NCBI GenBank assembly: GCA_046733695.1
Contig: JBKPPU010000273.1
Span: 2,085 to 66,084 of the forward strand
Length of the DNA: 64,000 nt
Reading direction: 5' to 3'
Source of the DNA: Acidobacteriota bacterium
GTDB lineage: Bacteria; Acidobacteriota; Blastocatellia; Pyrinomonadales; Pyrinomonadaceae
Shown here: in pieces, positions 4,144-34,415 of the stretch
Position numbering within the stretch: position 1 is the stretch's first letter
Layout of the letters: every line of letters starts with the position of its first letter
Translations under genes and position numbers: made by a program
The notes under the pieces: model-generated
What the model was told of the DNA's origin: nothing
What the model saw: the letters and a program-made list of their open reading frames with translations, nothing else
Database searches by the model: none

Positions 4144-4153
4144 GAGGCAGAGA

Positions 4154-5900: not shown

Positions 5901-5935
5901 ATCCACAGATTACACAGATTGAATACAAAATCTGT
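5901..5935. repeat. Family A repeat (atccacagattacacagatt plus a degenerate inverted partner)
   Basis: 20-mer identical to 8321-8340. It lies in the divergent promoter region between the 4154-5875 gene and wzt. Confidence 0.7.
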
Positions 5936-5946
5936 ATGATACGGCC

Positions 5947-7239
5947 ATGGAGCCAGTCCTGCGAGTAGAAGGCGTTTCCAAACAGTATCGCATCTATGAG
6001 CGGGCTGCGGATCGGCTTAAGGAGATGGCGACTCTCGGTCGCTGGAAAACTCACCGGGAATTCTGGGCACTAAGGGACGTCAGTTTCGAGGTCGAACCAG
6101 GGACGACGTTTGGGATCGTCGGTCCCAACGGTTGTGGCAAATCGACCTTGTTACAAATCGTGGCCGGTACTCTGCAACCAACCCTGGGCAGCGTTTGGAG
6201 CACGGGCCGGATAGCAGCACTGCTGGAGCTTGGCGCTGGATTCAATCCTGAGTTTACCGGCGTTGAGAACGTTTTCATGAACGCCTCCTTGACAGGCCTC
6301 TCTCACGCCGAAACGCTCGCCGCCCTCCCCTTCATCGAGCGTTTCGCCGAGATCGGTGAGTTCATACATCAACCGGTCAAGACCTATTCGAGCGGCATGT
6401 ATGTCCGGCTTGCCTTCGCGGCCGCGATCAGCGTGATGCCGCAAATCCTGATCGTCGACGAAGCGCTCGCGGTGGGTGATGCAGTCTTTCAACATCGATG
6501 CATGCGGCGCATTCGCGAGATGCAGGAAAGCGGCATGACGATCCTGCTGGTCTCACACGATCCGAGTGCGATACGCGCGCTCTGCTCGAGAGCATTGCTG
6601 CTTCACGAGGGACGTGTCGAGGCGTTGGGCAAGCCGACGGATGTTCTCAATCGCTATCAGAAGTTGATCATGGCTCGCGAATCGACTTATGAAGATACGC
6701 AACCACCTCAACTCGATGAACCCGTTGACGCAGATCTGGAGAATCCGCCGAAACTCTCGTTCACCTACCGTCACGGAGATGGTAGTGCCGCCATCACTTC
6801 GGTTGAACTTCTAAATACCACACTGCAGCCGATCGAGTTTGTTGAGACTGGGGAGGAAGTCGTGATAAGAGTTCGGGTGCAATTCCGAGAGCCACATGAA
6901 GCACCCGTCTGCGGGTTTCTGATCCGTAACCGTCACGGCATTCACATCTATGGCACTAATACGGATTTGCAGCAGGAGCACTTTGGCCCCGTTCAGCGTG
7001 GCGAAACTGTCGAGGTAAGCTTCAATCTTAATTGCTGGCTCGCGCCCGACAGTTATTCAATAACCGTTGGCGTTCATAGCCTCGATGGAGTCAGTTATGA
7101 CTGGCTTGACGGAGCGTTCTTTTTTCACGTGATGAGTACTGTCGCGATGGAAGGAGTTACGAATCTCGACGCGACGGTAAGAGTTCGGCGCAAGAGCGTT
7201 CGTGGGAGTTCTGTTACGGCAGAACCCGTTAACGCCTGA
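5947..7239 (+). CDS. wzt: Polysaccharide/O-antigen ABC exporter ATP-binding protein (Wzt/TagH type) with C-terminal carbohydrate-binding-like domain
   Basis: Walker A GPNGCGKST, signature YSSGMYVRLAFA, Walker B ILIVDEAL. The ~160-aa C-terminal extension (GDGSAAITSVELLN...IRVRVQF...) resembles the Wzt_C beta-sandwich. Confidence 0.85.
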   Translation: MEPVLRVEGVSKQYRIYERAADRLKEMATLGRWKTHREFWALRDVSFEVEPGTTFGIVGPNGCGKSTLLQIVAGTLQPTLGSVWSTGRIAALLELGAGFNPEFTGVENVFMNASLTGLSHAETLAALPFIERFAEIGEFIHQPVKTYSSGMYVRLAFAAAISVMPQILIVDEALAVGDAVFQHRCMRRIREMQESGMTILLVSHDPSAIRALCSRALLLHEGRVEALGKPTDVLNRYQKLIMARESTYEDTQPPQLDEPVDADLENPPKLSFTYRHGDGSAAITSVELLNTTLQPIEFVETGEEVVIRVRVQFREPHEAPVCGFLIRNRHGIHIYGTNTDLQQEHFGPVQRGETVEVSFNLNCWLAPDSYSITVGVHSLDGVSYDWLDGAFFFHVMSTVAMEGVTNLDATVRVRRKSVRGSSVTAEPVNA

Positions 7240-7247
7240 CCTCAGTC

Positions 7248-8318: not shown

Positions 8319-8320
8319 CC

Positions 8321-8369
8321 ATCCACAGATTACACAGATTAAATAAAAGAATCTGTGTAATCTGTGGAT
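8321..8369. repeat. Family A repeat: perfect 20-bp inverted repeat with 9-nt loop; likely bidirectional terminator
   Basis: atccacagattacacagatt / aaataaaag / aatctgtgtaatctgtggat, between convergent genes. The last codons of the 8339-9475 ORF are encoded by the repeat. Confidence 0.85.
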
Positions 8370-9475
8370 ACCTTTTGATAGACCTGCCACGTCGCTGTTG
8401 CTGTGCGCTCCCAGGAAAATTTGTTTGCGTGCGTGATGCCGCTGGCGGAACGATGTTCTCGCTCGCTCGCATCGTCGAGCAAAGCCGTTATGCCCCGCGC
8501 GAGATCATCAACGTCAGTCGGGGAAATCAAACGAGCAACCTCGCCGACTGTCTCAACGATGCTGGGAATTCTGCTGGTAACTACCGGCGCTCCGCAGGCC
8601 ATTGCTTCCAGCAGTGGCAAACCGAAGCCCTCGTACAACGACGGATACACAAATACTCGACATGATGAATAAAGTGCTCGTAAGTCATCATCCGGCAGAT
8701 GTCCAGTGAACAGAACTCGCTCGCCGATGGGTTTGTCGCGCAAGTAATCCATCAACTCACCCGAGAGCCACCCTTCATCACCGGCGACAACTAGCTGCAA
8801 TGTTGATGAAGTCGATCGAATGATCTGTTCAAACGCGCGCACCAGCGTCAACAGATTCTTGCGCGGCTCGATGGTACCTACGAAGAGTATGAACTCGGCT
8901 TCAACTCCAAGTCGCTCACAATCAGGCCGACTCTCGGATGCAGGCATCGGATAAAAGCAAGCACGGGCAGCTTCCGGGATTGCAAACACTTTGTCTGCGC
9001 TGACTCCTAGATGCTCACAGACTTCGCCTCTCACTGTCTCCGACGGCGTGATGATTGCGGTAGCCTTACGCGCAGCACGCGGCAGCTTCATGCGCGCTCG
9101 TCGCACCAGGTGTTTTTCATGGGTCTCGGGATAAAGAAGCAGTGACAGGTCGTGAATCGTGAGAACGGTGGGACAATTCACCCAGTAAGGGAGAGCGAAA
9201 TTGGTCCCGTGGAAAAGAGCAAACGACTCACGCCGGCAGTAGCGCGGCAAATATATGGACCACCAGCCGCGACGTCTCAGACGGTCAAGGCCGGCGTTGA
9301 CGAGCTTGAGGTTCGGCGGAAACGAATTATCTATCGATGTAAACGGCGATGGCGAGACGAGCTCGAATTGATGGTCGGAGGCGATAGCAGCGAGCGCACG
9401 CCCCAATTCAAACGTGTAATGGCCAACGCCTGTTTTTTTCCTACACAGCGGTAAGCCGTCGAGTCCAAAGCGCAT
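8339..9475 (-). CDS. GT4 glycosyltransferase (mannosyltransferase-like)
   Basis: 378-aa ORF with FVGTIEPRKN and YPSLYEGFGLPLLEAMACGAPVVTS motifs. Confidence 0.85.
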   Translation of the reverse strand: MRFGLDGLPLCRKKTGVGHYTFELGRALAAIASDHQFELVSPSPFTSIDNSFPPNLKLVNAGLDRLRRRGWWSIYLPRYCRRESFALFHGTNFALPYWVNCPTVLTIHDLSLLLYPETHEKHLVRRARMKLPRAARKATAIITPSETVRGEVCEHLGVSADKVFAIPEAARACFYPMPASESRPDCERLGVEAEFILFVGTIEPRKNLLTLVRAFEQIIRSTSSTLQLVVAGDEGWLSGELMDYLRDKPIGERVLFTGHLPDDDLRALYSSCRVFVYPSLYEGFGLPLLEAMACGAPVVTSRIPSIVETVGEVARLISPTDVDDLARGITALLDDASEREHRSASGITHANKFSWERTATATWQVYQKVSTDYTDSFI

Positions 9476-9500
9476 CTCCTCCTGAATTAACTGCTTACGC

Positions 9501-9543
9501 CAAAAAGATCAAGGCTGGCCCTTCGCAAAAAGGACCAGCCTTG
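9501..9543 (-). terminator. Putative intrinsic terminator of the 9570-10523 gene
   Basis: On the minus strand: caaggctggtcc / loop / ggccagccttg, followed by a T-run (atcttttt). Confidence 0.5.
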
Positions 9544-9569
9544 TTTTGGAGACGCTACTTTAAATCGTC

Positions 9570-10523
9570 TTAGAACCGATTGATGTATTCCGGCGACTCG
9601 ATGAAGCCGCGCACAATCGTGTTCTCGAGGAAGTCGGGATCGGCCGCCAACTTAAACCGCTCGTTGTGGAAAATGTAACCACACTGAGACGGGTTGGGAC
9701 TGCCCACGCAAATTTCCGGGTCACGTCGCAGGTAACCGAAGTATTCCATGGTTACGAACGCCGCCTTGTAGAACTTGTCATTGACCTGGGTACTCTCAGC
9801 GATATTGCGCAATACCTGAGCTCGCGTCTTGGCAGCCGTATTCAAGTCCGTAACCAGTTGAGCCTGGTTCGGAATGGTCACTCCTGCCGTGTCTACGAGT
9901 TTCTGCACGAAAGCCGTGTTCGACAGCGGATCGTAAATGGCCTTGATTTCGGGCCGCTGCATCCAGGCGTCAGTCAGCTGGACCTTCTTTTGCTCGCCTA
10001 GCACCGGATCGTCATCCGGCACTGAAATCGCCGCCAGGTCAGTCATAAATTCCGCGTAGTGAGGCCTGTCGATCTTGGTCGGATCGCCAAGCTCAGCCAC
10101 CGTTGCCGGTCGCTGTCCCAAAGACGTCATGTAAAGGTACATCACGTATGAACCTTTGCGCTGGAACTCTGGCGAACGGAAGAAATTGGCCGAGAGCGCA
10201 CCCCTCGTAAACTTGATGCACTCGATATCGGTTTGCACGCATCCGTTCAGGATATTGAGATAGAACTGCAACCCGGCCGGCTCGGGAAAGCGCCGTAAGA
10301 AATCGATGTACTGCTGAGATATGAAAAAATCATAGTCAGCAATGGTAATCACTGTATTGGTTCCGGGTCTCAGTCTCAGCGGTTTGACCTTGATATCACC
10401 ATAAAACAGCTCCGACGGGAGTCCCGGTGTTTCGGTAACGATTCTCAATGTCGGCGGTGACTGGGCAAAACCGATGGCGGAAACGACAAGCATCAGGAAT
10501 GATGCGGCTAAGAACTTTTTCAT
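9570..10523 (-). CDS. Secreted DUF4214 domain-containing protein
   Basis: Signal peptide MKKFLAASFLMLVVSAIGFAQ, preceded by GGAG. Has the DUF4214-like segment FISQQYIDFLRRFPEPAGLQFYLNIL. The start was moved from 10652 to 10523. Confidence 0.65.
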   Translation of the reverse strand: MKKFLAASFLMLVVSAIGFAQSPPTLRIVTETPGLPSELFYGDIKVKPLRLRPGTNTVITIADYDFFISQQYIDFLRRFPEPAGLQFYLNILNGCVQTDIECIKFTRGALSANFFRSPEFQRKGSYVMYLYMTSLGQRPATVAELGDPTKIDRPHYAEFMTDLAAISVPDDDPVLGEQKKVQLTDAWMQRPEIKAIYDPLSNTAFVQKLVDTAGVTIPNQAQLVTDLNTAAKTRAQVLRNIAESTQVNDKFYKAAFVTMEYFGYLRRDPEICVGSPNPSQCGYIFHNERFKLAADPDFLENTIVRGFIESPEYINRF

Positions 10524-10755
10524 ATTCAACTCCAACCCTGGGGAACCTGGGGATCGGTTCTGATTTAGGAATGAGGCTAGGCGTGCCTTCTGGCCGCTTG
10601 ACCAGAAACTATACTTGCGCCCTAACCTTCTGTCAACACTGTTTAGCTTCACCGTCTTTTAGTAACCTAACACGACTAATGACCCGGAAATTTGCCTTTT
10701 GATGCTTTATTCCGGGCCACGGCCGAAAAATATTTGCCCCGGGCTATTCGACCCG

Positions 10756-17065: not shown

Positions 17066-17090
17066 GTCCTATAGGACATATACGACCTAT
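17062..17090. repeat. Family B repeat containing the 12-bp palindrome gtcctataggac
   Basis: ataggtcctataggacatatacgacctat, between convergent lpxB and lpxD. Confidence 0.75.
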
Positions 17091-18109
17091 ATCTTCTTCT
17101 TCAGCTCTTCAATCTCCGCATTAAGGCGCTTGATCTCCTCGTGCATCTGCGGCAGGCGGTTCATGTGAGCGTTCATGCGTTTGTATTGATCGAGCGGCTG
17201 CACGGGAATTCCCCACCAAACGCCTGGTCGCACGATCTTGCCCGGTAAGATTCCGGCTTTCGATCCGATCACAGCGCCCTTCTGCACTCGCGTGTGATCT
17301 CCAAAACCGACCTGCCCGCCAATCACTGCATCGTCTTCAATCACCACACTGCCGCTAATCCCTGTTTGCGCCGCAATCACGACACGCTCGCCGATGTCGC
17401 AGTTGTGACCAACGTGGACCATATTGTCGAGCTTCGTGCCACGACCGATTCGCGTTCGTCCGAGCGCGGCGCGATCCACACAACTGTATGCGCCAATGTC
17501 GACGTCGTCTTCGATCACCACCGTTCCGACCTGCGGAAACTTCTGATAACCGAGTTCGTGCCGCACGTATCCAAACCCATCCGCGCCAAGACAAACTCCC
17601 GCGTGCAATATCACACGAGTTCCAATCGACACGCCGTCGTACAGAACAACGTTGGGATGCAGCACACAATCATCGCCAACCGTCACATTCGCGCCCAAAA
17701 CCACACCCGGTTCGAGCCTCGTATAACCGCCCACATGCGTGTGCTCACCGACGCAAACATTTGGACCAACATATGCGGTGAGCGCAATGTCGGCAGTTTC
17801 AGCAACAACCGCCGTCGGATGAATTGTTGGTTCGCGACGCACCGCCGGATAAAGCGCAGCGCCCACCAAAGCAAACGCAAGCTTCGGATTGGCAACGACG
17901 ATCAACGTTCGATCCGCGAACTCAACGCCATCGCGCACAATCAAGCACGACGCTTTACTCTCCGCGGCCGCGTCAAACAACTTCTCATTGTCGACGTACG
18001 CAATCTCGCCCTCACGCGCCTGGTCCAGATCGGCAATCCGTTCGATCCGCGTTCCCGCGTCGCCAACCACACGACCACTCACGACACTAGCGAGTTCCTG
18101 TACTCTCAT
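17087..18109 (-). CDS. lpxD: UDP-3-O-acylglucosamine N-acyltransferase
   Basis: 340 aa with left-handed beta-helix hexapeptide repeats and an LpxD-like N-terminal domain (LASVVSGRVVGD...IERIADLDQAREGEIAYV). Its start overlaps the lpxA stop in an ATGA. Confidence 0.9.
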   Translation of the reverse strand: MRVQELASVVSGRVVGDAGTRIERIADLDQAREGEIAYVDNEKLFDAAAESKASCLIVRDGVEFADRTLIVVANPKLAFALVGAALYPAVRREPTIHPTAVVAETADIALTAYVGPNVCVGEHTHVGGYTRLEPGVVLGANVTVGDDCVLHPNVVLYDGVSIGTRVILHAGVCLGADGFGYVRHELGYQKFPQVGTVVIEDDVDIGAYSCVDRAALGRTRIGRGTKLDNMVHVGHNCDIGERVVIAAQTGISGSVVIEDDAVIGGQVGFGDHTRVQKGAVIGSKAGILPGKIVRPGVWWGIPVQPLDQYKRMNAHMNRLPQMHEEIKRLNAEIEELKKKI

Positions 18110-23779: not shown

Positions 23780-24463
23780 TCAACACTTACGCGCCAGATC
23801 ACTGACAAGCGAAGCCTGTACAGCACCGTCAACCTGGAAATTCAGACGCGCCGCACGCCCAACATGAAACTCTCGAATCCGCGTCGCGCGTTTGATCTCC
23901 TCGATTGCCTTGGCGTCGATGCCGCCACCGGCAAGGATCGTTAACTGCGGAGCAGCGGCGTGTTCGTACTCTGCGAGTCGTTGGACTCTCGACGTCAGTT
24001 GGTCTCTTCCGCCGTGACTAAGAATGCGATCGACTTGCGGCAGTCGTTTGATATCGGTTAACGCGCGTAGTTTGTCGTTTGCATCTTCAAACGCATGGTG
24101 GAAGGTTGCTCGTGTATGCGGAGCGCACGCAAGCACGCGTTGCGTCAGTTCAATATCCACTTCACCATCTTTCAAAAAACCGAGCACAAAACCATCGACA
24201 TCAAGCGACGCAAAAGCTTCTGCGGCTCGACACAGGCGATCGACTTCATCGGTGCCATTCGTGCGATAACTCGGACTCTCGCGCAGCATGACACGAACCG
24301 GCAGTTCCGTGGCGTGTTTAATAGCGCGAACGAGTTCGAGCGAGGGAGTTAAACCGCCCTGATGCAAATCCCTGACTATCTCGAGCCGACCCGCACCGCC
24401 CCTTTCGGCCTCAACTGCATCTGCAACCGAACACACGATCACTTCTAACAATGGCATCAGCAC
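23780..24463 (-). CDS. cutC: Copper homeostasis protein CutC family
   Basis: LLEVIVCSVADAVEAERGGAGRLEIV opening and TIM-barrel-like CutC pattern over 227 aa. Confidence 0.85.
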   Translation of the reverse strand: MLMPLLEVIVCSVADAVEAERGGAGRLEIVRDLHQGGLTPSLELVRAIKHATELPVRVMLRESPSYRTNGTDEVDRLCRAAEAFASLDVDGFVLGFLKDGEVDIELTQRVLACAPHTRATFHHAFEDANDKLRALTDIKRLPQVDRILSHGGRDQLTSRVQRLAEYEHAAAPQLTILAGGGIDAKAIEEIKRATRIREFHVGRAARLNFQVDGAVQASLVSDLARKC

Positions 24464-24501: not shown

Positions 24502-25585
24502 GTTGCCTCAATTCAAAATCTTCTCGAAATCTGATTCGTTGCCTCAACTCGAAATCTTCTCCAAATCGCTGGGCCGGCTGACCAAAAACAAAGTTGTTAT
24601 TGGTCCAGGTACTCTCCGGTCGCCTATACAATCGCTAGCGGCTTGTTGTCAGCCGCCAACTGTAATAGTTGCTCTTGTAGTCGCTCTATTTGTCGCTTCA
24701 GTTCGGCCGGGTTCAAACCAGCGTATTCCGCCTTCAGGCGACGCTTGCTGGCGGCTGACAAATACGGTGACTGTTGTAGCCTTTGATAACGCGTTTGCGC
24801 TACCTCATACGTCGTCTTTACCTGACTGCAATGCTGTTCTTTGGACTTAAGCTTCATCAGCGGTTGAAAGTAATTCGTATAGAGACGCAGATACTCAAAT
24901 AGTTTATTGACCAAGGTCAGTTGTTCCTGGCCAGCCAGACGCTGATAGCCGACATGCCGCCGCACCATGGTGTAGTTCTTCTGCTCCACATAGCAGTTTT
25001 CTTGCGGTAGGGCCGCGACCTGGTAAAGATAAGCCGCTCCTGTTGGCAGTACTGCAACCGGTCCGCATTGATAAACTCCGAACCGTTGTCCGAGTCAATC
25101 CCGCGCAAAGGAAACGGCAAACGCGCCCGCAGCTCTTTAAGGGCCGCAAAGACCCACACCTGAGCTTTGTTCTGCACCGCTTGCACCTCGGTCCAACCAC
25201 TGTAAATATCAGTCATATCAAGCGTCTGCAGATACTCTCCTTGCACGAGACCGCCGTTATGTCCAACCAGATCGATCTCCACAAACCCCGGTCGTTGCTC
25301 ATTCCACTCCCTGAAACTGCGCAGCGGAATCTGCTTCTTCAACAGTGTTTCCGGCTTAGTTCCACCACGCCCGCGCAACTCATGCTCGCGGCGCTCGCTA
25401 CGCAACAGCCGGTCGACCGTTGATAGCGACTTCTTGTTGCGGCCGTCACCGCTTTGCGTTCCGCCATCTTTAGCCTCAACCTTTTCTCCTCCTTCGCTGC
25501 TGAAGGAGGTCATTGTGAAACTTATTTCGAGAAGATTTTTCAGTCGAGGCACCGAATGCCTTTGGAGAAGATTTTAGTGAGTCAA
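24502..25585. mobile_element. Degenerate IS-like element: frameshifted DDE transposase flanked by doubled ~30-bp inverted repeats
   Basis: The left end has two tandem copies, gttgcctcaattcaaaatcttctcgaaatc (24502-24531) and gttgcctcaactcgaaatcttctccaaatc (24538-24567). The right end has two inverted copies, atttcgagaagatttttcagtcgaggca (25524-25551) and tttggagaagattttagtgagtcaa (25561-25585). Confidence 0.65.
24624..25513 (-). pseudogene. DDE (rve/integrase-core) transposase, disrupted by a frameshift near 24990-25000
   Basis: Two overlapping ORFs (24917-25552 and 24624-24989) join as ...TRSRPYRKK / NCYVEQKNYTMVRRHVGYQRL.... The upstream part carries the rve-like core (FVEIDLVGHNGG...DMTDIYSGWTE...GIDSDNGSEFIN). 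Confidence 0.7.
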
Positions 25586-26270: not shown

Positions 26271-27662
26271 ATGGCTGACAGTGTCAAACTCTTCTATTCA
26301 TACTCCCATAAGGACGTCGAGCTTCGTAATGAACTGGACAAGTACCTGATGATTCTGAAGAGAACCGGAATCATCGATTGCTGGCATGACCGGCAGATCA
26401 CGGCTGGAGCGGAATGGAAAGGCAACATCGATGCTGAGCTCAATTCCGCTGACGTCATCCTGCTTCTCATCAGCGCGGACTTTTTCTACTCCGATTACTG
26501 TTATGACGTCGAACTCTCCCGGGCCATGCAGAGACATGAACGAGGCGAAGCAGTTGTCATTCCCGTGATTCTGCGTCCCTTCCCCTGGAAAAAAGCCTCC
26601 TTCAGTAAACTGCAAGCACTACCTACGGACGGAGCACCGGTAACAACCTGGCCCCAAGGAAAGGACGCCGCTTTTACAGACATTTCAGAAGGCATAGAGA
26701 AGGTTGTGAATGAGATTCTCAGAAAGCGAAAGTCTCCATTGCGCACAACCAAGCCCGCGGTTTATCTGGCCGAGACGACTAATGAGCGTCGCATGCAAGA
26801 CTATCGGGACGGAATTGCGGCTGAACTGAAAGCATATGGTTACCCAGTTGTTCCTGTTCCAAATGTCGACCTACCTGATGAATCACCCCAGTATGAAGAA
26901 GAGATCCGGCGTTATCTAAAAGGTGTAAAAGTCTCGGTCCATCCAATTGGAAATAAGTACGGCAGAATCATTGCGGGAACAAACGACACGTCGGCTGTGA
27001 AGCTGCAAAACATGATTGCAGAGGAACTTCGCAGGCAAGGACGGCTAGAGAGTCTTATATGGATTCCGCCAGAGGTGGCAGCAGAAGGCGATCGGCAAAT
27101 TGCTTTTCAGAGATATCTCGAGACTGATCCGCAAGCACAACTGAATGCTGAGTTATCACGCAAGCCGTTTGAATCCGTCAAAGATCGCATCATTGATAAG
27201 TTGAAGAAATACGATCGGCTGCCATTCCAGCACAGCTCCGCAGCAACGAAGAGCGTCTATCTGATGTGTGAGCAAAGGGACAAGCAGTTGGTGGCCGCAG
27301 TCAAAGACATTATTTACCGTAATGGCTTTGAAGTATTTTTGCCGCCCAGCGTGACTGACCAGGGACCCGCCGCTACCTTTCATGAGCGATGCCTGACATC
27401 GTGTGACGCAACCTTGATTTATTACGGAGCGCCCAACGATGACTGGGTGAGTCTCATGATCCTGGATATACGAGATGCGCCCACCCGACGTGTGCGTGGT
27501 GACTTCGTTTGCAAAGCTCTCTTTCTTGCCGAACCCCACGTTAATTATCAAACCCACACCGCCGAAATATTGAAGTATGACGGAAAGTCTCTTGAGAACT
27601 CGTTGATGCCGTTTATTGAATGCCTTCAAGGAAAGAGCCCGAATGGAGGCGCGTTGCAATGA
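26271..27662 (+). CDS. TIR domain protein with two additional tandem alpha/beta (TIR-like/flavodoxin-like) modules
   Basis: AGGAGG-N8-ATG at 26271. The N-terminal TIR_2-type pattern is KLFYSYSHKDVELRNEL...ADVILLLISADFFYSDYCYDVEL...VVIPVILRP. The C-terminal ~300 aa has two segments, each opening with VYL (AVYLAETTNERR..., SVYLMCEQRDKQ...). Confidence 0.8.
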   Translation: MADSVKLFYSYSHKDVELRNELDKYLMILKRTGIIDCWHDRQITAGAEWKGNIDAELNSADVILLLISADFFYSDYCYDVELSRAMQRHERGEAVVIPVILRPFPWKKASFSKLQALPTDGAPVTTWPQGKDAAFTDISEGIEKVVNEILRKRKSPLRTTKPAVYLAETTNERRMQDYRDGIAAELKAYGYPVVPVPNVDLPDESPQYEEEIRRYLKGVKVSVHPIGNKYGRIIAGTNDTSAVKLQNMIAEELRRQGRLESLIWIPPEVAAEGDRQIAFQRYLETDPQAQLNAELSRKPFESVKDRIIDKLKKYDRLPFQHSSAATKSVYLMCEQRDKQLVAAVKDIIYRNGFEVFLPPSVTDQGPAATFHERCLTSCDATLIYYGAPNDDWVSLMILDIRDAPTRRVRGDFVCKALFLAEPHVNYQTHTAEILKYDGKSLENSLMPFIECLQGKSPNGGALQ

Positions 27663-30600
27663 AACAAGATCGTACCAATCCCTTTCCGGGATTACGCCCT
27701 TTTGACGTTGATGAAGATGAGCTGTTCTTCGGCCGGTCTCATCAAACTGATGAGCTTCTGTCTCGGTTAAGGCAATCGCGCTTCACAGCAGTAATTGGCA
27801 CTTCCGGCAGTGGCAAGTCGTCGTTGGTACGTGCCGGATTGCTACCGGCTTTGAAACGTGGACTGATGGCGGCAGCCGGTTCGCGTTGGCGCGTCGCACT
27901 CTTTCGACCGATCAACGATCCGATTGGAAACTTGACTCGGGCACTCAAGAGAGAAGGAGTGTTTGTCGATGCAATAGCCGACGACCAGCAGCTTTCGTTC
28001 ATTGATAGCACCCTGCGTAGCAGTTCGTTGGGATTAGTTGAACTGCTACGACAGTCACGGATGAAAGCAGACGAGAATCTGCTGATAGTGGTCGATCAGT
28101 TTGAAGAACTGTTTCGCTTTGAGGAGACCTTTACTTGCGAGAACCCGGCCGACGAAGCCCTGGCGTTCGTCAAGTTATTATTGGCAGCTACCACGCGGCA
28201 GCGTGAAGTGCCAATTTATCTTGTACTGACGATGCGTTCGGATTATCTGGGAGAAAGTGCGAGGTTTCGTGGGTTGCCGGAAGCAATCAATGAGGGGCAA
28301 TACCTGGTCCCGCGGATGAACGATGACGAACGGCGCCAGGCTATTACCGCTCCGGTTGCGGTCGCCAAAGGCCAAATTAGCGAACCGCTGGTTAACCGGC
28401 TGCTCAATGATGTAGGCGATGATCCAGGCAAGTTGCCATTACTGCAACATGCTCTGATGCGAACCTGGGAAAACTGGGAGAACGACGGGAGAGCCGGCGG
28501 TGCCCCGCTGAGTATCTCAAATTACGCGGCAATCGGTGGTCTTTCGGGCTCTCTCTCCAAACACGCCAACGATATTTATGACGAATTGTCTGAAGGACAG
28601 CAATTAGTTGCCGAAAGAGTTTTCAAAGCCTTGACCGCGAAAGGACCGGATGGACGAGGCGTTCGTACACCGCGCACCTTTGGGGAACTCTGCGCTATCG
28701 CCACCGTCGCTGGATCAAGTGCCAAAACAATCGAGCCTGACGTTCGAGCCGTTATTGATTCCTTTCGCGGCGAGGGGCGCTCGTTCCTGATGCCGCCGCC
28801 CAGGGATGTGGAAAATCCCGACCGGATAATCCCGCTGACCGCAGACACTCTGATCGACATCTCGCATGAGAGTTTGATCCTGGGTTGGGATAGGTTGCAG
28901 CAGTGGGTTGAAGATGAAGCAGACGCGGCACGCATGTATCAGCGTTTGTCAGAGCACGCCGTGCTTTTTGACAAGGGCATTGAAAAGCGTTTGAGTCCAC
29001 CGGCATTGCCTGTTTTTCTGAGATGGCGTGACGAGACTCACCCGAATACCGCTTGGGGTCGTCGTTACTTTAATCCAGCCTGGAGTTCGCTTTTCAAGGA
29101 GGGGGGATCGAAAACCAGCGAATATGATACGGAATTTGATCGTGCAGATGCTTTCCTCGATGAGAGTAACGATGCATATGAGGCTGAGTTGGCCGTAAAA
29201 GAAAAGGCCGCAAAGCAACGCGTAAGAAGACTGGTCTATATCGCAGTGTCATTCGCATTGCTTTTCCTCTTGGCTACGGTTTTTGCTGGTGTGGCCGTCG
29301 CGCAGTGGAGAAAGGCTCAATCCGCTCTGCAACGAGCTGAAGCCGCGGAAGCTGTGACGAAACAGCAGAAGGAGGAGGCTGAGAGACAAAGGGCATTGGC
29401 TGTAGAAGGAAGATTAGAGGCCGAAAAACAAAGTGCGCTGGCTGAAGCACAAGCAAACGAGGCTGTGAGACAAAAAGCAGACGCTGTGACTCAAAGAGAA
29501 CTGGCGCGGAGAGCAGAGAGTCAGGCCGTTGCAGCTAAAGCGGAAGCCGTGAAGGATCGCAACGCTGCGGAAATGTCAGCGCAGGTAGCATCGGTGGCCC
29601 AGAAGAAGGCCCAAGACGCGCTCGCGGAGGCTCAAACGAGCAAAGAGGAAGCTTTGACACAAAAAGAGGAAGCAGAAACGCTCCGGGACCTAGCTGAATC
29701 CGCTACTGCTACAGCCAACGAACAAAAGCAGCGGGCTACCGAACAGCGCATCCGTGCCAACTCGGAGTTCCAAAAAGCAGACGAAACGTTGATTACGTTG
29801 CGAAACATAGATAATCAGACTCGACACCTCAATGCTATCAATCGCAAGAACGACCCTATCAGCACAGCTGTTTTCGCGGACAGTGAACATGCATTTATCA
29901 GCAGTGGAAATGATGCAGCTCTATTTGAGCGGCGCTCGGGCTCGTGGGAATTCAAAGAGTCCGATTTTCGTGATGTTCCTCGCCTCGTCTACAAACTCCA
30001 GACTGAGTCTAATCTCGCGGCTCATATGCAAGACGTGCTTCCTTCCGAAACCGAAGACCGAATAGGAAAATTCGGAGGTGCTGAAAAACCCGATCAGTCG
30101 CTTATTACTTCACTCGTCAGCGGTTTTAATACTGCGCTGAAGAATTCGACTCTGTATAAGAAGTCCGCCTTTCGCTACGTTAAGCTACGACCAGAAACAC
30201 AAGCTCTTCTCGATAAATTCAATCAAGATCAAGGCTCGGTAAACCTGGCCCAGCTCAATCGTATGTTACTTGAGGATGCTTATCCATTAGAGATTGCGCA
30301 GGTGAACCACTTTAATGAGGCCCAGAAGTTTCCGAGTCACTATGTTTTTGCCCTCGACACTAACTTTAAGCGGGTTGCGGCGAAATCTCAGGACAGGGAG
30401 ATCGATATTTTCGATTCAGCGGGAAAACAGATCGGAACGAAGACGAATGACTATCTATTCATTGACTCTGTCGATTTTAGCCCGCAAGGCAATTACATCT
30501 GGTCGCTAGCCCGCGAAGACGTTGAGAAGCGTGAGAATTATCAAATTCTGATCTGGAAAAACGATGAAAAAGACGATGAGCCAAGACGTTTGGACTTTAC

Positions 30601-31459
30601 CAAACCGATTAACCGCGCAGTCATGAACCATAACGAAACACAGATTGCGATAAACTTTTCCTCATCCACTGAGATTCAGTTGTGGGATATCAAAAACAAA
30701 ACAAAGATTCGTTCTCTGACAGGAACAGAAAAATTATCGGCTGGCGATTTCCTACCGACTAACGATTCCGGCAACGCTGAGAAAACCGATCTGATTACGC
30801 ACATCGCTTACAGCAACGACGGAAAATATATCGTCGCAACTTTCAAAAACCACAGAAACCTGCGTCTGTGGGATGCAACGACGGGAGAACTGCTCCACGA
30901 CATGGACGGGCACCATTGTCAGGTTAACAGTGCAGAGTTCAGCAACGACGACACTCTGATTGTCAGCGCGGGCGAAGACGGCGCGGCCTTTGTTTGGGAC
31001 CGAAAAAGCGGGCGCGTTAAGCACGAATTACGTGGCCACCTAGGATTGATGATTAGGCACGTGCGAAAGGGATTCCGAGCCTGGTTCCCGCCGATACCGT
31101 TCCCGCTAGATCTCGATCTACAAAGTCGAGAGGGCGCGTTCGTGCCTCTGAATAGCGCAAAGTTTAACCACGACGGTACCAAAGTGGTAACGGCTAGCGT
31201 CGATGGTCGCATTGCGCTGTGGACATGGAAGAAGAATGACCCCTTCGCGGTGAAATCTCTTGAGCTGAAGGGTTACACGGGAAGCGTGCTCAATGCAGAG
31301 TTCAGTCCGGACGATGAATTTGTGATTGCCGGTGGTCAGGATGGAGCTGCTCGAATCTGGCGTGTCCCAAAGCCTCTTTCTGACAAGAGCCCGGCGGCTA
31401 AATCGTGCAAGGATGCGAGCGAAATCCGATCAGCTAAACACGACAGTGATATGCAATAA
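27659..31459 (+). CDS. STAND-class P-loop NTPase (nSTAND-like) + single TM helix + long coiled coil + WD40 beta-propeller
   Basis: The start overlaps the TIR gene stop in an ATGA, preceded by GGAGG. Motifs include NPFPGLRPFDVDEDELFFGR, Walker A GTSGSGKSSLVRAGLLPAL, Walker B LLIVVDQFEELF, MRSDYLG and LPLLQHAL. The TM helix is LVYIAVSFALLFLLATVFAGVAVA. An A/E/Q/K-rich coiled coil of about 160 aa follows. C-terminal WD40 signatures are LRLWDATTGELLHDMDGH, SAGEDGAAFVWD, SVDGRIALW and GGQDGAARIWRV. Confidence 0.85.
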   Translation: MKQDRTNPFPGLRPFDVDEDELFFGRSHQTDELLSRLRQSRFTAVIGTSGSGKSSLVRAGLLPALKRGLMAAAGSRWRVALFRPINDPIGNLTRALKREGVFVDAIADDQQLSFIDSTLRSSSLGLVELLRQSRMKADENLLIVVDQFEELFRFEETFTCENPADEALAFVKLLLAATTRQREVPIYLVLTMRSDYLGESARFRGLPEAINEGQYLVPRMNDDERRQAITAPVAVAKGQISEPLVNRLLNDVGDDPGKLPLLQHALMRTWENWENDGRAGGAPLSISNYAAIGGLSGSLSKHANDIYDELSEGQQLVAERVFKALTAKGPDGRGVRTPRTFGELCAIATVAGSSAKTIEPDVRAVIDSFRGEGRSFLMPPPRDVENPDRIIPLTADTLIDISHESLILGWDRLQQWVEDEADAARMYQRLSEHAVLFDKGIEKRLSPPALPVFLRWRDETHPNTAWGRRYFNPAWSSLFKEGGSKTSEYDTEFDRADAFLDESNDAYEAELAVKEKAAKQRVRRLVYIAVSFALLFLLATVFAGVAVAQWRKAQSALQRAEAAEAVTKQQKEEAERQRALAVEGRLEAEKQSALAEAQANEAVRQKADAVTQRELARRAESQAVAAKAEAVKDRNAAEMSAQVASVAQKKAQDALAEAQTSKEEALTQKEEAETLRDLAESATATANEQKQRATEQRIRANSEFQKADETLITLRNIDNQTRHLNAINRKNDPISTAVFADSEHAFISSGNDAALFERRSGSWEFKESDFRDVPRLVYKLQTESNLAAHMQDVLPSETEDRIGKFGGAEKPDQSLITSLVSGFNTALKNSTLYKKSAFRYVKLRPETQALLDKFNQDQGSVNLAQLNRMLLEDAYPLEIAQVNHFNEAQKFPSHYVFALDTNFKRVAAKSQDREIDIFDSAGKQIGTKTNDYLFIDSVDFSPQGNYIWSLAREDVEKRENYQILIWKNDEKDDEPRRLDFTKPINRAVMNHNETQIAINFSSSTEIQLWDIKNKTKIRSLTGTEKLSAGDFLPTNDSGNAEKTDLITHIAYSNDGKYIVATFKNHRNLRLWDATTGELLHDMDGHHCQVNSAEFSNDDTLIVSAGEDGAAFVWDRKSGRVKHELRGHLGLMIRHVRKGFRAWFPPIPFPLDLDLQSREGAFVPLNSAKFNHDGTKVVTASVDGRIALWTWKKNDPFAVKSLELKGYTGSVLNAEFSPDDEFVIAGGQDGAARIWRVPKPLSDKSPAAKSCKDASEIRSAKHDSDMQ

Positions 31460-31544: not shown

Positions 31545-32309
31545 TCAAGCGCTTGCAGACTGCGCATATCGCAAGCGACGTTGTCGAAGAATTTCAACGA
31601 TCGCGAACGCGGTCTCTTCCATCCGTTCGTGGCATATTGTGTCCAACCTCTCAGCCTCATCTTCCCATGCAGGCGACACGGATCCATGACGATACAAATG
31701 ATTATTGACTCGCTCCGAGGCATGAAACGCACTCCCACAAGGTCTCCAGTCAAATAACGGTGTCGGTGGTGATCGCTGCATTTCCAGTGGAACAGTCATC
31801 TCGCCCTTCAAAACAATTGGCACAATCGCGCCACCCGGTTCCCGAGGGGGCGGGTTGGTTCTACGCCAGTGCCGCATTTGAGATTTGAAGTCAAGACACC
31901 TCCACCAACCAGGACGCTGAGGACGTTGGTCTCGGAGTTCGGGAATCGGGGCCTCGCGACATAAGTCGAACCATGGTCGAAACTCTTTGGAAAGCATCGT
32001 ACTGAACTCGAATTTGCACCAACGTGACCCAAAATATTCAGGTGATAGAAACGCCAGTAGGACTTCACTCTCTTCGATCGCGAACGTGAGGGATCTTATA
32101 AGTTCAAAATCAGAGAACCAAGGTCTACTCAAATAATGAAGCGTATACCCGTCATAGAATATCGGTGGCTCTCCGATCGTTTGTGCTATGACAGGACGAA
32201 GAACTGTTTGCAAAAAGTGGTCAACCAGCGGTTTGATTATCTGTACCTCGTTTTCGCGGGTGGTGTAGCTCACGAATACGTGGAACCGTTCAGGTGGATG
32301 AGTAGTCAT
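31545..32309 (-). CDS. TIR domain protein (second, divergent copy with inserted segments)
   Basis: FHVFVSYTTRENE..., EVLLAFLSPEYFGSRWCKFEF (TIR WCxxE-type motif) and IVPIVLKG. 254 aa, convergent with the STAND gene. Confidence 0.7.
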   Translation of the reverse strand: MTTHPPERFHVFVSYTTRENEVQIIKPLVDHFLQTVLRPVIAQTIGEPPIFYDGYTLHYLSRPWFSDFELIRSLTFAIEESEVLLAFLSPEYFGSRWCKFEFSTMLSKEFRPWFDLCREAPIPELRDQRPQRPGWWRCLDFKSQMRHWRRTNPPPREPGGAIVPIVLKGEMTVPLEMQRSPPTPLFDWRPCGSAFHASERVNNHLYRHGSVSPAWEDEAERLDTICHERMEETAFAIVEILRQRRLRYAQSASA

Positions 32310-32336: not shown

Positions 32337-32904
32337 TCAAGGTGAGACATTGAAGGAGATCGTCGCCGTAGTCTTGCCGCCGAAATAGTTGCTTGCTTGT
32401 CCTGTCAACGTCCCGCTGCCTGAAGTGAAGATCCAGCCGGCCTGACATTCCATCTTAAAATCCACATCGTAGAGCAGGAAGATGCTCGTCAATACATTTC
32501 CATTGGAATCAGGCGCGAGGTTCTGAGTCATTGGAGCAAGCGTCGCATTTTTGTTCTGTGCGATGTTCTCACCGCCCGGCGGCGCCTTGCAGGTCCAGAC
32601 CAGCTCGCCGCTGCCGGCGGATGGATTAATCTGGATTTGCTTCACACCTTCAGGATCGTTGGCTTTCAACGTAATCCGATATTTTTCACCGCGCTTGACG
32701 TTGATCGTCGGATTACCGTTATGGTCGGACTGCGCGTTGGTGGCGTAGTTAAAAACGTTCCAGATAAGTGAAGGTGGCGTGGAATCCGATTTGGGCAATC
32801 TTCACACCTTTCTGGCAGCTCGCAATGACCAGACAGATCACAACCATGAAGAAGCAACCTAATCGCCATCTCGGCGCCAGTCTCATGTAAGCCTTAGTTG
32901 ACAT
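32337..32904 (-). pseudogene. Putative lipoprotein whose signal peptide and mature part are in different frames (or a TTG-initiated 153-aa ORF)
   Basis: Frame A (from ATG 32904 or 32886) encodes M..RLAPRWRLGCFFMVVICLVIASC with lipobox IASC, and stops at 32749. Frame B (32798-32337) encodes a 153-aa beta-rich protein. Frame B is closed by TGA just upstream of 32798, so a 1-nt shift near 32791-32803 would be required. Confidence 0.4.
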
Positions 32905-32924
32905 TGCCTGACCTCTATTTTGCG

Positions 32925-33257
32925 TTACTTCAATTCGCCTGGCCGATAGCCACAATGAACGCACCTCATTGCGAATGCGTTCTGGTACCACCACTTCCGA
33001 TAGAAATTCTTATTGCAACGCGGGCACTTCCAATTTAGTCGCCAGATGCCTGTTGCGACGATGCCCAGGAACCAGGCTGTGCTCAAAATCTGAGCCACAC
33101 CCTCAGAATTCAACCACCGGCCGAGGGGAACAGCAACATACAAGATCGCAAAAAACCCGCTGAGGGCGAGACTCCAAAACACAAGGTTTCGCTTGCGATA
33201 TTCCCAAAGCGCCTCCTGCCTCGCAATCATTGAGTCCATATCTCCTTTAAATCTCAT
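32925..33257 (-). CDS. Small membrane protein with two TM helices and a C-terminal CxxC...CxxC zinc ribbon
   Basis: LVFWSLALSGFFAILYVAV and TAWFLGIVATGIW hydrophobic segments, then KCPRCNKNFYRKWWYQNAFAMRCVHCGY. The start is ambiguous (33257, 33239 or 33230); the ORF-track start at 33341 is unlikely. Confidence 0.55.
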   Translation of the reverse strand: MRFKGDMDSMIARQEALWEYRKRNLVFWSLALSGFFAILYVAVPLGRWLNSEGVAQILSTAWFLGIVATGIWRLNWKCPRCNKNFYRKWWYQNAFAMRCVHCGYRPGELK

Positions 33258-33404
33258 GTGCGAAAATTGAAGCACACCTGCCTTCCGTGGACCAAGCCCA
33301 TATATGCCACGAATGAACAAAGTCAGCGTGACACCACACACTACGTTCGAAATGATGTTACACTGTGCGCTAAATTGAATGCGGATTTAGCAACGGAGCA
33401 CGTT

Positions 33405-33698
33405 ATGAAACTTACGCGCGACATTCAGAGCCTTAGTACTTTCAAACGCGATACCGCGAAGATCGTTCGCCAGCTAAAGAAGACCGGGCAGCCAGTTGTT
33501 CTGACCGTTAATGGCAAAGCTGAACTTGTTGTACAGGACGCGGAAAGCTACCAAAAGCTCCTTGAAGCGCAGGATCGGATGGAAGCAATCGAGGGTATAA
33601 GGCGTGGATTGGAGAGCATGAAGCGGAATGCAGGGAAACCGGCAGAAAAATTCTTCCGGGAGTTTTTTGCTGAGAAAGGCATTTCGGAGCGGGAATGA
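33405..33698 (+). CDS. Type II antitoxin, Phd/YefM family
   Basis: GGAG-N6-ATG. The sequence MKLTRDIQSLSTFKRDTAKIVRQLKKTGQPVVLTVNGKAELVVQDAESYQKLLE is a classic Phd/YefM N-terminus. Confidence 0.8.
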   Translation: MKLTRDIQSLSTFKRDTAKIVRQLKKTGQPVVLTVNGKAELVVQDAESYQKLLEAQDRMEAIEGIRRGLESMKRNAGKPAEKFFREFFAEKGISERE

Positions 33699-33985
33699 AG
33701 CGTTACGCAGTTATCTTCGAGCTCTCTGCTCAGGCAGACGTCCGTGGATCTTATGAGTGGGGTTGCCGGGTTTGGGGAAAGAGAGAAGCGCAACGATGGG
33801 TCCGCGAATTACGGATAGCAATTTTCAGCCAGCTCAGCCTCGTGCCCAAGGGGTTTCCGATCGCGCCTGAGGACGACGAGTTCTCTGAACAGATTCGCCA
33901 GATGATTGTGGGCCGCTATCGTGTATTGTTCACAATCAGAAAGCACAAGGTTCACGTTCTTCACGTTAGAGGCGCTCACGTCTAA
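33695..33985 (+). CDS. Type II toxin, ParE/RelE superfamily
   Basis: ATGA overlap with the antitoxin. 96 aa ending ...IVGRYRVLFTIRKHKVHVLHVRGAH, typical of ParE/RelE-fold toxins. Confidence 0.75.
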   Translation: MKRYAVIFELSAQADVRGSYEWGCRVWGKREAQRWVRELRIAIFSQLSLVPKGFPIAPEDDEFSEQIRQMIVGRYRVLFTIRKHKVHVLHVRGAHV

Positions 33986-34082: not shown

Positions 34083-34415
34083 GTGGCGAAGGACCGCACA
34101 GATCTGATGCAGGGCACGCTGGAGTTGTTGATTCTGAAAACTCTGGAGCGTGAATCGTTGCACGGGTATGGGATAGTGCAGAGAATTCACGAATCTGCCG
34201 AAGACTTACTCAAGGTTGAAGATGGATCGCTGTATCCGGCGCTCTACCGCATGCAGGAACGCGGTTGGATCAAGTCAGAGTGGGGAGTTTCAGAAAACAA
34301 CCGTCGCGCCAGATTTTACAAACTGACCAGAGCCGGACAAAAACAACTCGAACGTGAGCGCGCCAACTGGGAACGCGTGTCAAAAGCGATTTCCAGAATC
34401 TTACAAACTGCCTGA
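34083..34415 (+). CDS. PadR family transcriptional regulator
   Basis: GTLELLILKTLERESLHGYGIVQRI...GSLYPALYRMQERGWIKSEW...RFYKLTRAGQKQL. Confidence 0.9.
   Translation: MAKDRTDLMQGTLELLILKTLERESLHGYGIVQRIHESAEDLLKVEDGSLYPALYRMQERGWIKSEWGVSENNRRARFYKLTRAGQKQLERERANWERVSKAISRILQTA

Follow-up and report, generated by a model that had tools for sequence, protein, structure and literature searches.

Members of the nSTAND1 clade of NTPases (PF20703; Kaur, Burroughs, Iyer & Aravind, eLife 2021) typically combine C-terminal repeats with TIR-type effectors, and the versions covered by the searched text of that paper carry N-terminal effector-associated or Death-like domains; no membrane span separating NTPase and repeats is mentioned in that same text. 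Avs and bacterial NACHT (bNACHT) proteins are built from an effector, a STAND NTPase and a repeat sensor, with a TIR or DUF4062 NADase output in some of them, and each of these proteins is one soluble chain, with a sensor that recognises phage proteins 'inside cells'. In those bNACHT proteins that bear transmembrane (TM) regions, these regions are multiple and some lie within the NACHT module. Periplasmic sensing by TM-bearing bacterial STAND/NACHT proteins is an idea already put forward broadly (Kibby et al. preprint; Dore et al. 2024), and for the STAND targets of diversity-generating retroelements (DGRs), which have a NACHT or nSTAND1 NTPase, TM segments and periplasmic sensors were predicted in silico, these sensors being of the C-type-lectin/FGE type and diversified by a retroelement (Dore et al., PNAS 2024). 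Preprints of 2026 report that DUF4062 acts as a TIR-like NADase effector in STAND (Avs2) proteins.

The DNA analysed here (the window, 64,000 nucleotides from an Acidobacteriota bacterium) contains a two-gene module in which a TIR-domain partner gene precedes a STAND gene whose product is composed of an nSTAND1 NTPase, a basic cluster, a 26-residue hydrophobic helix, a stalk and a WD40 propeller, in this order (Table 1). It is alike to the nSTAND1 clade in its NTPase (327 bits), with intact Walker A/B motifs, in its repeats and in its TIR-type effector, but here the effector is encoded by a separate upstream gene. Compared with the soluble Avs and bNACHT proteins, the effector is supplied in trans and the predicted position of the sensor is on the far side of the membrane; compared with the TM-bearing bNACHT proteins, a single span is followed by a propeller. 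The sensor also differs from those of the DGR targets in being a WD40 domain, and no reverse-transcriptase ORF was found among the ORFs scanned between positions 22006 and 37466. We consider it rather probable that the two genes encode a transmembrane NLR-like receptor with a periplasmic propeller, coupled to a cytoplasmic TIR NADase partner and triggered from the envelope. The module belongs to a very large, uncharacterised family.

Table 1. Features of the two-gene module, in coordinates of the window.
Feature	Position	Strand	Evidence
Partner gene, 463 aa, TIR plus two further alpha/beta TIR/DUF4062-like domains	26271..27662	+	Pfam, PADLOC, AF2
TIR domain of partner	26292..26735	+	Pfam TIR_2 and TIR
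C-terminal two-domain region of partner (DUF4062-like)	26748..27635	+	phmmer matches from other loci
Translational coupling signal: GGAGG 27646-27650, STAND ATG 27659-27661 over partner TGA 27660-27662	27646..27662	+	sequence read
nSTAND1 NTPase (NOD) module, predicted cytoplasmic	27680..28975	+	Pfam PF20703 match and motifs
Post-NOD region, conserved, leading as a long helix into the membrane (predicted)	28976..29197	+	A1 invariant columns, AF2
Basic cluster KEKAAKQRVRR, cytoplasmic face (predicted)	29198..29230	+	flank charge count
Transmembrane helix, single, signal-anchor (predicted)	29231..29308	+	Kyte-Doolittle, Eisenberg, conservation in relatives
Helical stalk, ~184 aa, proline-free, Ala/Glu/Gln-rich, predicted periplasmic	29309..29854	+	composition, AF2, periodicity
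WD40 beta-propeller, ~8 blades, predicted periplasmic, presumed ligand-binding end	29855..31363	+	Pfam, AF2, Foldseek
Helical insertion, ~100 aa, between propeller blades 1 and 2	29975..30280	+	AF2 model residues 334-435, pLDDT 82-94

The STAND gene corresponds to ORF 27620/27659..31459(+), with 1279 aa from the longest start. The ATG at 27659 (M14) is most likely the true start, correcting the ORF start at 27620, because GGAGG lies 9-13 nt upstream of it and it forms an ATGA overlap with the stop codon of the partner; an identical 4-nt overlap is seen in loci L001, L002 and L084. In the NCBI-derived model (P0001, 1266 aa), the hydrophobic helix covers residues 525-550. The PF20703 match reaches 326.9 bits (cut-off 27.1, E=3e-97) over aa 21-452, aligned to positions 1-373 of the 379 in the profile. 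Both Walker motifs are intact (A, GTSGSGKSS; B, LLIVVDQFEE), and G47, G50, G52, K53, S54 and D146-E150 are invariant in the family alignment A1. As nSTAND1 begins at ORF aa 21, which is aa 8 of the likely protein, an effector domain N-terminal to the NTPase is absent; the N-terminus, MKQDRTNPFPGLRPF, is polar and no cleavable signal peptide was seen there. W456, P462, W466 and Y470 are invariant in the post-NOD region, from which a helix (AF2 model residues 53-103) runs unbroken into the hydrophobic segment.

An earlier sequence-only reading had proposed that a single strongly hydrophobic segment, preceded by a basic cluster, separates a cytoplasmic NTPase from a periplasmic sensor. The segment, LVYIAVSFALLFLLATVFAGVAVAQW, occupies residues 538-563 of the 1279-aa ORF, exactly where that reading had placed it, and is the only such stretch of the protein, with a Kyte-Doolittle 19-residue mean of 2.57 against 1.12 for the next highest peak. 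It comprises 24-26 uncharged residues and its Eisenberg <H> is 0.84 over 21 residues, and since its hydrophobic moment is 0.02, it is not amphipathic. The value of 2.57 was reached by 22 of 5000 shuffles of the whole protein (p about 0.004), which alone is modest evidence; the stronger evidence is conservation. In the survey of homologues that had been suggested, one hydrophobic segment just after the NTPase was found in 117/120 close homologues, in 138/141 cluster representatives (50% identity) and in 77/78 loci taken from the genomes of GTDB species; these genomes belong to Acidobacteriota, Bacteroidota, Cyanobacteria, Verrucomicrobiota, Planctomycetota and Proteobacteria. Of the 138 span-bearing representatives, only 3 show a further hydrophobic peak. 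Across these relatives the hydrophobicity of the helix is conserved and its sequence is not. This pattern bears on the possibility that the helix lies outside any membrane, buried in the centre of a soluble, oligomeric bundle of helices that it would form together with the neighbouring coiled coil. The continuity of the segment with long helices on either side and the heptad periodicity of the stalk would fit such a bundle, but a specific packing interface would conserve residues, whereas here hydrophobicity alone is kept, at a Kyte-Doolittle mean of 2.0-3.7 over 19 residues across relatives, and a lone span with Arg residues clustered at its flank is what textbooks describe for a signal anchor, so that we regard a soluble bundle as very improbable.

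The distribution of charges on both sides of the helix is in agreement with its insertion as a signal anchor. Within 15 residues of the helix, this protein has six K/R on the N side, where the basic cluster lies, and three on the C side; the corresponding means are 5.8 and 3.2 in the close homologues and 5.9 and 3.4 in the cluster representatives (Wilcoxon p=5e-19). The N flank is the richer one in 98/117 close homologues (the poorer in 6) and in 113 cluster representatives (the poorer in 7). Arg occupies position -1 of the helix in 212/255 relatives (83%) and an RR pair is found within 8 residues in 185/255. The STAND protein thus presents the features of a type II bitopic protein, namely one bilayer-length segment, an N-flank K/R excess and no signal peptide, and the N-in/C-out orientation predicted beforehand from the positive-inside rule agrees with every in-silico test carried out, with a charge bias that holds at the scale of the family. 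The NTPase most likely faces the cytoplasm, while the stalk and the propeller, the presumed sensor, would be periplasmic, since one conserved membrane-crossing helix lies between the ATPase and the propeller. The N-terminal side is placed in the cytoplasm because this is the compartment required by an ATP-dependent NTPase and by its putatively NAD-cleaving TIR partner.

Domain fusions in the relatives point in the same direction for the other end of the protein. A GH19 endolysin-type domain is present at the extreme C-terminus of 13/346 relatives (full-length match to PDB 9ms7, E=1e-42), preceded by a beta domain of ~100 aa with a conserved Cys pair; a Ser/Thr/Pro-rich linker is also found in relatives, and two of them (P0365 and P0263) have a NOD-TM-stalk-GH19 organisation from which the propeller is absent. 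As a peptidoglycan hydrolase at the far C-terminus makes sense only outside the cytoplasm, the C-terminus would lie there. Arguments from domain fusion, like those from the positive-inside rule, are indirect with respect to topology. The helix could otherwise be a monotopic, re-entrant or in-plane anchor on the inner face of the membrane, with stalk and propeller in the cytoplasm sensing, like other STANDs, phage proteins located in the cytoplasm or close to the membrane. The cytoplasm is indeed where canonical WD40 propellers and every characterised STAND sensor reside, the AF2 model has a low-confidence break at model residues 104-109, within the last third of the helix, and rare relatives (P0027, P0093 and P0115) have the same NTPase and WD40 domains in a NOD-linker-WD40 arrangement without a span, so this NTPase is also able to function when its propeller is cytoplasmic. 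Such an anchor nevertheless appears unlikely: an in-plane helix would be shorter and less uniformly apolar than these 24-26 uncharged residues with their moment of ~0.02, a hairpin would be longer, no central turn-former is conserved, the charge asymmetry is strong and conserved, and the GH19 C-termini and Ser/Thr/Pro-rich linker would be useless in the cytoplasm.

Beyond the helix, the acidic and Ala-rich helical stretch noted earlier was recovered as a stalk of 184 residues with 23% Ala, 14% Glu, 11% Gln and no proline. It shows a periodicity of 3.5 residues (heptad, p=0.003 against shuffles), has no Pfam match and is modelled by AF2 as long helices (model residues 110-185 and 196-281) at low to medium confidence (pLDDT 41-59 in part); either a coiled coil or a helical hairpin would agree with the model. 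The propeller is better defined, with Pfam WD40-type matches at aa ~948-1265, about eight blades spanning aa ~737 to ~1248 in the AF2 model (pLDDT mostly 80-95) and Foldseek matches to ODA16, the PkwA WD40 domain and G-beta at E=1e-19 to 1e-22. No Pfam family was found for the helical insertion between its first blades. The canonical G-beta/PkwA-type WD40 fold is best known from cytoplasmic proteins, an observation that runs against an N-in/C-out topology. By analogy with other STAND proteins the propeller may act as the sensor, and residues are less conserved in the C-terminal part than in the NTPase (majority-residue frequency of 0.51 and 0.43 versus 0.71), as expected of a recognition module.

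Apaf-1/TEP1-type NOD-WD40 proteins resemble the STAND protein in having a NOD followed by one or more WD40 propellers, with a DUF4062 or recruitment domain upstream of the NOD. In Apaf-1, the propellers fold back and inhibit the NOD, which is topologically impossible here if the membrane lies between them; with this layout, the propeller could not fold back on the NTPase as in Apaf-1-type STANDs. Bitopic N-in/C-out receptors are known among PknB/PknD-type Ser/Thr kinases, ToxR/CadC regulators and the ExeA/GspA ATPases; the sensor of PknD is a beta-propeller, and ExeA is a P-loop ATPase coupled to a periplasmic peptidoglycan-binding domain. All of them share with the STAND protein a cytoplasmic N-terminal output, one signal-anchor helix and a large outside sensor, but the output would here come from a STAND oligomerisation NTPase and its TIR partner, and the likeness is one of architecture, with no relationship claimed. 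Toll-like receptors offer an analogy only, having an outside repeat sensor, a single span, a cytoplasmic TIR output and ligand-induced clustering; they are type I proteins with an LRR sensor, whereas the present protein would be type II, with WD40 repeats, a NOD NTPase is interposed and the TIR is on a separate protein, homology between the two being limited to the TIR. Exporting ~716 residues behind a folded N-terminal domain of 524 residues is demanding and counts against the N-in/C-out topology; bitopic Ser/Thr kinases and ToxR-type regulators manage an equivalent export. The layout had been called mechanistically unusual, and this holds for the literature but not for nature: helix plus propeller is the norm in every sample examined, among hundreds of relatives in six phyla, and is unstudied.

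In most of 84 loci, the gene directly upstream of the STAND gene is a homologue encoding a TIR and DUF4062-like protein, and the two genes often overlap by 4 nt. In the window, the longest ORF of this partner starts at 26178. Pfam TIR_2 (E=1.6e-15) and TIR match at aa 39-186 and the PADLOC ThsB1 model, a ThsB-type TIR, at aa 37-189 (E=1.1e-55), while AF2 shows three beta-alpha-beta domains, with Foldseek matches to the TIR domains of SARM1 and RPP1. As the partner has no hydrophobic segment (highest 19-residue mean 1.19), it is predicted to be cytoplasmic. Its TIR motif, SADFFYSDYCYDVEL, read from the translation, retains a Glu at what is presumably the catalytic Glu site of TIR NADases. The part common to all sampled phyla is the C-terminal two-domain region, to which the upstream ORFs of other loci match by phmmer (query aa ~190-485); it is probably a docking/adaptor module or a second NADase module. 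Pfam DUF4062 (PF13271) gave no match at E<=0.05 in the window copy, and the partner homologues score 20.5-32.1 bits, around the cut-off of 24.7. The middle domain has an alpha/beta, TIR-like fold at modest confidence (AF2, Foldseek), and a motif, S..LQN..A, is invariant in alignment A3 at the expected catalytic position; because this motif looks different there, the domain may be a non-catalytic adaptor.

With this layout, the most likely mode of action would run in four steps. An envelope ligand or disturbance (phage, other attacker or damage) would bind or cluster the propellers, and the cytoplasmic NTPase modules would be drawn together by the stalk and TM helices. NTP-dependent oligomerisation of the STAND protein could follow, and the TIR/DUF4062-like partner would then be recruited or activated, consuming NAD+ or making a signal, with growth arrest or cell death as the outcome. 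PADLOC has no model for the whole system, giving matches only to the generic ThsB-type TIR and, for the STAND protein, weakly to mad8 and mad3 of the 'mads' (E=7e-5 and 1e-4), with no Avs or bNACHT model; the putative defence role is accordingly drawn from the domains and the context. Thoeris (ThsA + ThsB) was considered and set aside: a ThsB-type TIR is present, but it is flanked by the gene for the nSTAND1 protein and by an IS remnant, and as no SIR2, Macro or SLOG family (ThsA) was found among the neighbour genes scanned, the system lacks an adjacent ThsA-type effector and is not Thoeris.

The outside part could instead be a structural or housekeeping envelope module, such as a periplasm-spanning tether, a peptidoglycan-associated scaffold or a sensor of envelope stress or cell-cell contact, with the NTPase and TIR regulating physiology or programmed death in communities and not phage defence. 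The Ala/Glu/Gln-rich, proline-free stalk resembles periplasm-spanning helical domains such as domain II of TolA, a peptidoglycan hydrolase ends some relatives, two of them without any propeller, no validated defence system was matched in PADLOC, and in locus L084 the gene pair sits amid ordinary metabolic genes. Such STAND systems have also been linked to a multicellular habit (Kaur et al.). On the other hand, where tested, STAND-coupled TIR and DUF4062 domains are abortive-infection effectors, and the patchy distribution over six phyla with a highly variable C-terminal part is typical of conflict systems. The context of the gene pair is moreover island-like in the window (an IS remnant, a Phd/ParE pair and another TIR-like gene), in L002 (an integrase and type IIG restriction-modification) and in L083 (patatin-TIR genes). 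We therefore hold a housekeeping role to be a minority possibility, roughly one chance in a handful, beside the envelope-triggered receptor.

The operon convergent to the module had also been noted to encode envelope proteins, a point of little weight. A lipoprotein whose gene is probably frameshifted and a zinc-ribbon protein with 2 TM segments are encoded there, the third product is a cytoplasmic TIR-like protein, and these neighbours are absent beside the homologues in L001, L002, L083 and L084. The likely host belongs to the Pyrinomonadaceae, the name borne by proteins in clusters at >=90% identity, and is diderm, in line with a window ORF (17087..18109) that has cluster members named LpxD, a lipid A biosynthesis enzyme.

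The most likely true start of the STAND gene is the ATG at 27659, given the GGAGG at 27646-27650 and the ATGA overlap with the TGA of the upstream gene; the database model of the protein (P0001) has 1266 aa. An nSTAND1 STAND NTPase occupies aa 21-452 (Pfam, E=3e-97) and WD40/propeller families match aa ~948-1265. The Walker A (GTSGSGKSS) and Walker B (LLIVVDQFEE) motifs are both intact and are invariant across relatives; all testable defining features of the nSTAND1 clade are found in the protein, which is a member of this clade. NCBIfam returned only noise for this protein. Between NTPase and propeller, the sequence-only reading had described a hydrophobic segment preceded by a basic cluster and followed by an Ala-rich, acidic coiled coil, and the segment and the basic cluster were recovered. 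The proposed coiled coil corresponds to a predicted helical stalk, coiled coil or hairpin, of 184 proline-free residues (Ala 23%, Glu 14%, Gln 11%), with heptad periodicity (p=0.003) and long helices in the AlphaFold2 model, where the confidence is partly low. Since Pfam gave zero matches on the stalk and the proximal ectodomain (nt 29309-30500), we make no claim of homology to TolA or to any named coiled-coil family. Family-wide (190 proteins), the length of the helical, proline-free run that follows the span has two modes, ~35-60 and ~125-200 residues, with few values between, and the window protein belongs to the long class. The remainder of the protein is modelled by AlphaFold2 as a propeller of about eight blades, resembling ODA16, the PkwA WD40 domain and G-beta (Foldseek E=1e-19 to 1e-22). 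Two propeller elements, a helical insert of ~100 residues that is confident in the model and follows blade 1, and, in a late blade, an aromatic and proline-rich loop of low confidence (FRAWFPPIPFPLDL), matched no known family.

The hydrophobic segment was located exactly at aa 538-563 of the STAND ORF, with the basic cluster KEKAAKQRVRR directly N-terminal to it. It is the single strong hydrophobic stretch of the protein (Kyte-Doolittle 19-residue mean of 2.57, versus 1.12 for the second best) and is non-amphipathic (Eisenberg <H> 0.84, moment 0.02). The value of 2.57 was reached in 22 of 5000 whole-protein shuffles, so that it is by itself only moderately unlikely and the evidential weight lies in conservation. 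A survey of homologues, which the sequence-only reading had called for, was performed on three independent samples of relatives, which agree. One hydrophobic segment at residues ~490-590, straight after the NTPase, is present in 117 of the 120 best homologues. In a profile-free search of 1.84 billion cluster representatives, for which only the NTPase part served as query, 10,809 clusters at 50% identity matched the NTPase (E<=1e-30); among these, the segment was found in 138 of the best 141 sufficiently long representatives, and only 3 of the 138 had a second hydrophobic peak of any kind. It was also found in 77 of 78 loci from GTDB species genomes of Acidobacteriota, Bacteroidota, Cyanobacteria, Verrucomicrobiota, Planctomycetota and Proteobacteria. 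The span is nearly universal among the closest relatives, in which it was checked (346 proteins and loci, representing six phyla or more). Its residues vary freely while the hydrophobicity is retained, as expected of an anchor that faces lipid and not of a protein-protein interface; that the helix would instead be buried within a soluble bundle is accordingly highly improbable. The rare close relatives without the span are of two kinds: in P0027, P0093 and P0115 the NTPase is joined by a short helical linker directly to WD40, and in P0369 and P0370 a TIR domain is fused after the NTPase instead. These proteins, which have the same NTPase, show that the module can work wholly within the cytoplasm too.

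The positive-inside rule had suggested an N-in/C-out topology, with the NTPase in the cytoplasm and the stalk and propeller in the periplasm, and every computational line that we followed agrees with this prediction, which we consider likely. Lys and Arg residues average 5.8-5.9 in the 15 residues before the span versus 3.2-3.4 after it, the N-terminal side being the richer in 98/117 and 113/138 proteins and the poorer in 6 and 7 (Wilcoxon p=5e-19), and Arg occupies position -1 of the span in 212 of 255 relatives. No N-terminal signal peptide was found in the STAND protein. ATP, needed by the NTPase, and NAD+, needed by the partner, are cytoplasmic metabolites. At the other end of the chain, 13 of the 346 relatives carry a complete C-terminal GH19 endolysin-type domain (E=1e-42 against PDB 9ms7 across the whole length), preceded by a beta domain of ~100 residues with a conserved Cys pair. 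Two relatives, P0365 and P0263, lack the propeller and are built as NOD-TM-stalk-GH19; in one of the two a linker rich in Ser, Thr and Pro is present. As the terminal domain, a peptidoglycan hydrolase would meet its substrate only outside the cytoplasm; beside this observation, it appears improbable that the helix merely tethers the protein to the cytoplasmic face. In some members the outside end may combine the roles of sensor and effector. The Cys-pair beta domain and GH19 follow the propeller in a subclade comprising P0028, P0044, P0095, P0104, P0010 and others. A Tat-type export signal, which would pass a folded propeller, was also considered, since RR occurs within 8 residues before the span in 73% of cases; it was rejected as the main reading because the segment lies within the chain, after 524 residues, and its hydrophobicity is far above that of Tat h-regions. 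The host is probably a diderm acidobacterium, as two window ORFs group with proteins annotated as the lipid A enzyme LpxD and as an ABC-type polysaccharide/LPS transport ATPase, and the clusters (>=90% identity) of other ORFs contain proteins labelled Pyrinomonadaceae bacterium.

The TIR domain of the partner was detected by Pfam (E=1.6e-15) and by the ThsB-type model of PADLOC (E=1e-55); its motif is SADFFYSDYCYDVEL, in which we take the Glu to be the catalytic position. Two further alpha/beta domains follow in the AF2 model (mean pLDDT 67, pTM 0.37), with which only the TIR-domain matches of Foldseek (SARM1, RPP1) are credible. A homologous gene of ~460-530 aa lies directly upstream of the STAND gene in most of 84 loci, often with a 4-nt overlap. 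The common part of these homologues is the C-terminal two-domain region, which scores about the Pfam DUF4062 threshold in the partners of relatives and below it in the window copy. According to 2026 preprints, DUF4062 is a TIR-like NADase and an effector domain of Avs2 STAND proteins; a membrane-spanning STAND is not mentioned in them. All FxsC-type TIR matches of NCBIfam on the partner were sub-threshold, and the FxSxx-COOH system was therefore rejected as a class. In a Planctomycetaceae MAG (L082), the partner (2-2359) has an extra N-terminal Ser/Thr protein kinase before the TIR-like and DUF4062 domains, and the STAND ORF (2407-10569) reaches 2720 aa.

PADLOC gave no system-level match for the locus. 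Thoeris was rejected as no ThsA is present, and an Avs or bNACHT identity because neither model match nor architecture fits. A possible role of TM-bearing bacterial STAND proteins in sensing signals from the membrane or periplasm has been raised in general form, for NACHT proteins with multiple TM regions by Kibby et al. and for DGR targets by Dore et al. In the literature searched, which covers few subscription journals, we found no description of the single-span NOD-TM-stalk-WD40 layout, and none of the conserved TIR/DUF4062-like partner that goes with it. Within its family, which is large and unstudied, the window locus is ordinary and not a singular oddity. The layout occurs mostly in soil and aquatic bacteria, which are rarely used for defence-system screens, and this may be why it is unstudied.

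With the membrane between NTPase and propeller, the fold-back autoinhibition of Apaf-1 and Avs-type proteins cannot operate; signalling through the membrane by clustering, as in animal Toll-like receptors and receptor kinases, would be required instead. In the most economical model, all steps of which we infer, the outside domains would be clustered by a ligand or by damage, the stalk and span would relay the clustering inward, the cytoplasmic NTPase would assemble in an NTP-dependent manner, and the TIR/DUF4062-like partner would be activated last. Tentatively, the system could be a bacterial transmembrane NLR, a Toll-like set-up made from STAND parts, in which the stalk-borne periplasmic propeller would sense an envelope attacker (phage tail or ejection proteins, a breached peptidoglycan layer or a weapon that acts by contact) ahead of or during genome entry, and the partner would fire as a NADase. 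The distance of the sensor from the inner membrane would then follow from the stalk-length class, one class placing it close to this membrane and the other close to the peptidoglycan and outer membrane. No contig record was found for the window protein itself, and gene context, drawn from homologues and a GTDB genome scan (best match 52% identical), varies: one homologue adjoins an integrase and a type IIG restriction-modification system (L002), another patatin-TIR genes (L083), and a third ordinary metabolic genes (L084). That the outside part serves a non-immune envelope role is a rather unlikely alternative. To our knowledge, trigger recognition takes place within the cell in every prokaryotic STAND/NLR-like immune protein that has been characterised by experiment. 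If both the topology and the defence role are true, envelope-level surveillance would join the known repertoire of bacterial NLR-like immunity, and the two genes would offer a tractable system for studying the activation of a STAND NTPase from the cell exterior.

Flanked in the window by the IS remnant and the toxin-antitoxin pair, the two-gene system takes the form of a small mobile islet that is bounded by cutC and padR. The convergent downstream genes were rejected as part of the system, being absent beside the homologues, and the point made in the sequence-only reading about envelope proteins of a neighbouring operon does not bear on it.

Features of the STAND locus and of the surrounding window
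Feature	Position	Strand	Remark
ORF, polysaccharide/LPS transport	5947..7239	+	name from cluster mates
ORF, LpxD	17087..18109	-	name from cluster mates
cutC	23780..24463		bounds islet
IS element remnant	24624..25552	-	rve integrase core, 211-aa ORF; upstream of two-gene system
TIR/DUF4062-like partner	26271..27662	+	463 aa
STAND ORF	27620..31459	+	1279 aa
Hydrophobic span	29231..29308	+
Helical insert	29975..30280	+	after propeller blade 1
Aromatic, proline-rich loop	~31040..31135	+	late propeller blade
Borderline TIR-like ORF	31545..32309	-	254 aa, convergent; TIR_2 28.3 bits vs cut-off 28
81-aa and 153-aa ORFs	32337..32994	-	probably one lipoprotein gene
Phd/YefM-ParE toxin-antitoxin pair	33387..33985	+	downstream of two-gene system
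padR	34083..34415		bounds islet

With the borderline TIR-like ORF, on which PADLOC gave no match, the islet may contain a second TIR-like gene that is independent of the first. Next to this ORF, the 81-aa ORF, with a lipoprotein-type signal peptide (MRLAPRWRLGCFFMVVICLVIASC, followed by QKG), continues in another frame into the 153-aa ORF starting PKSDSTPPS; the two are probably one lipoprotein gene with a frameshift or sequencing error near 32749-32798.
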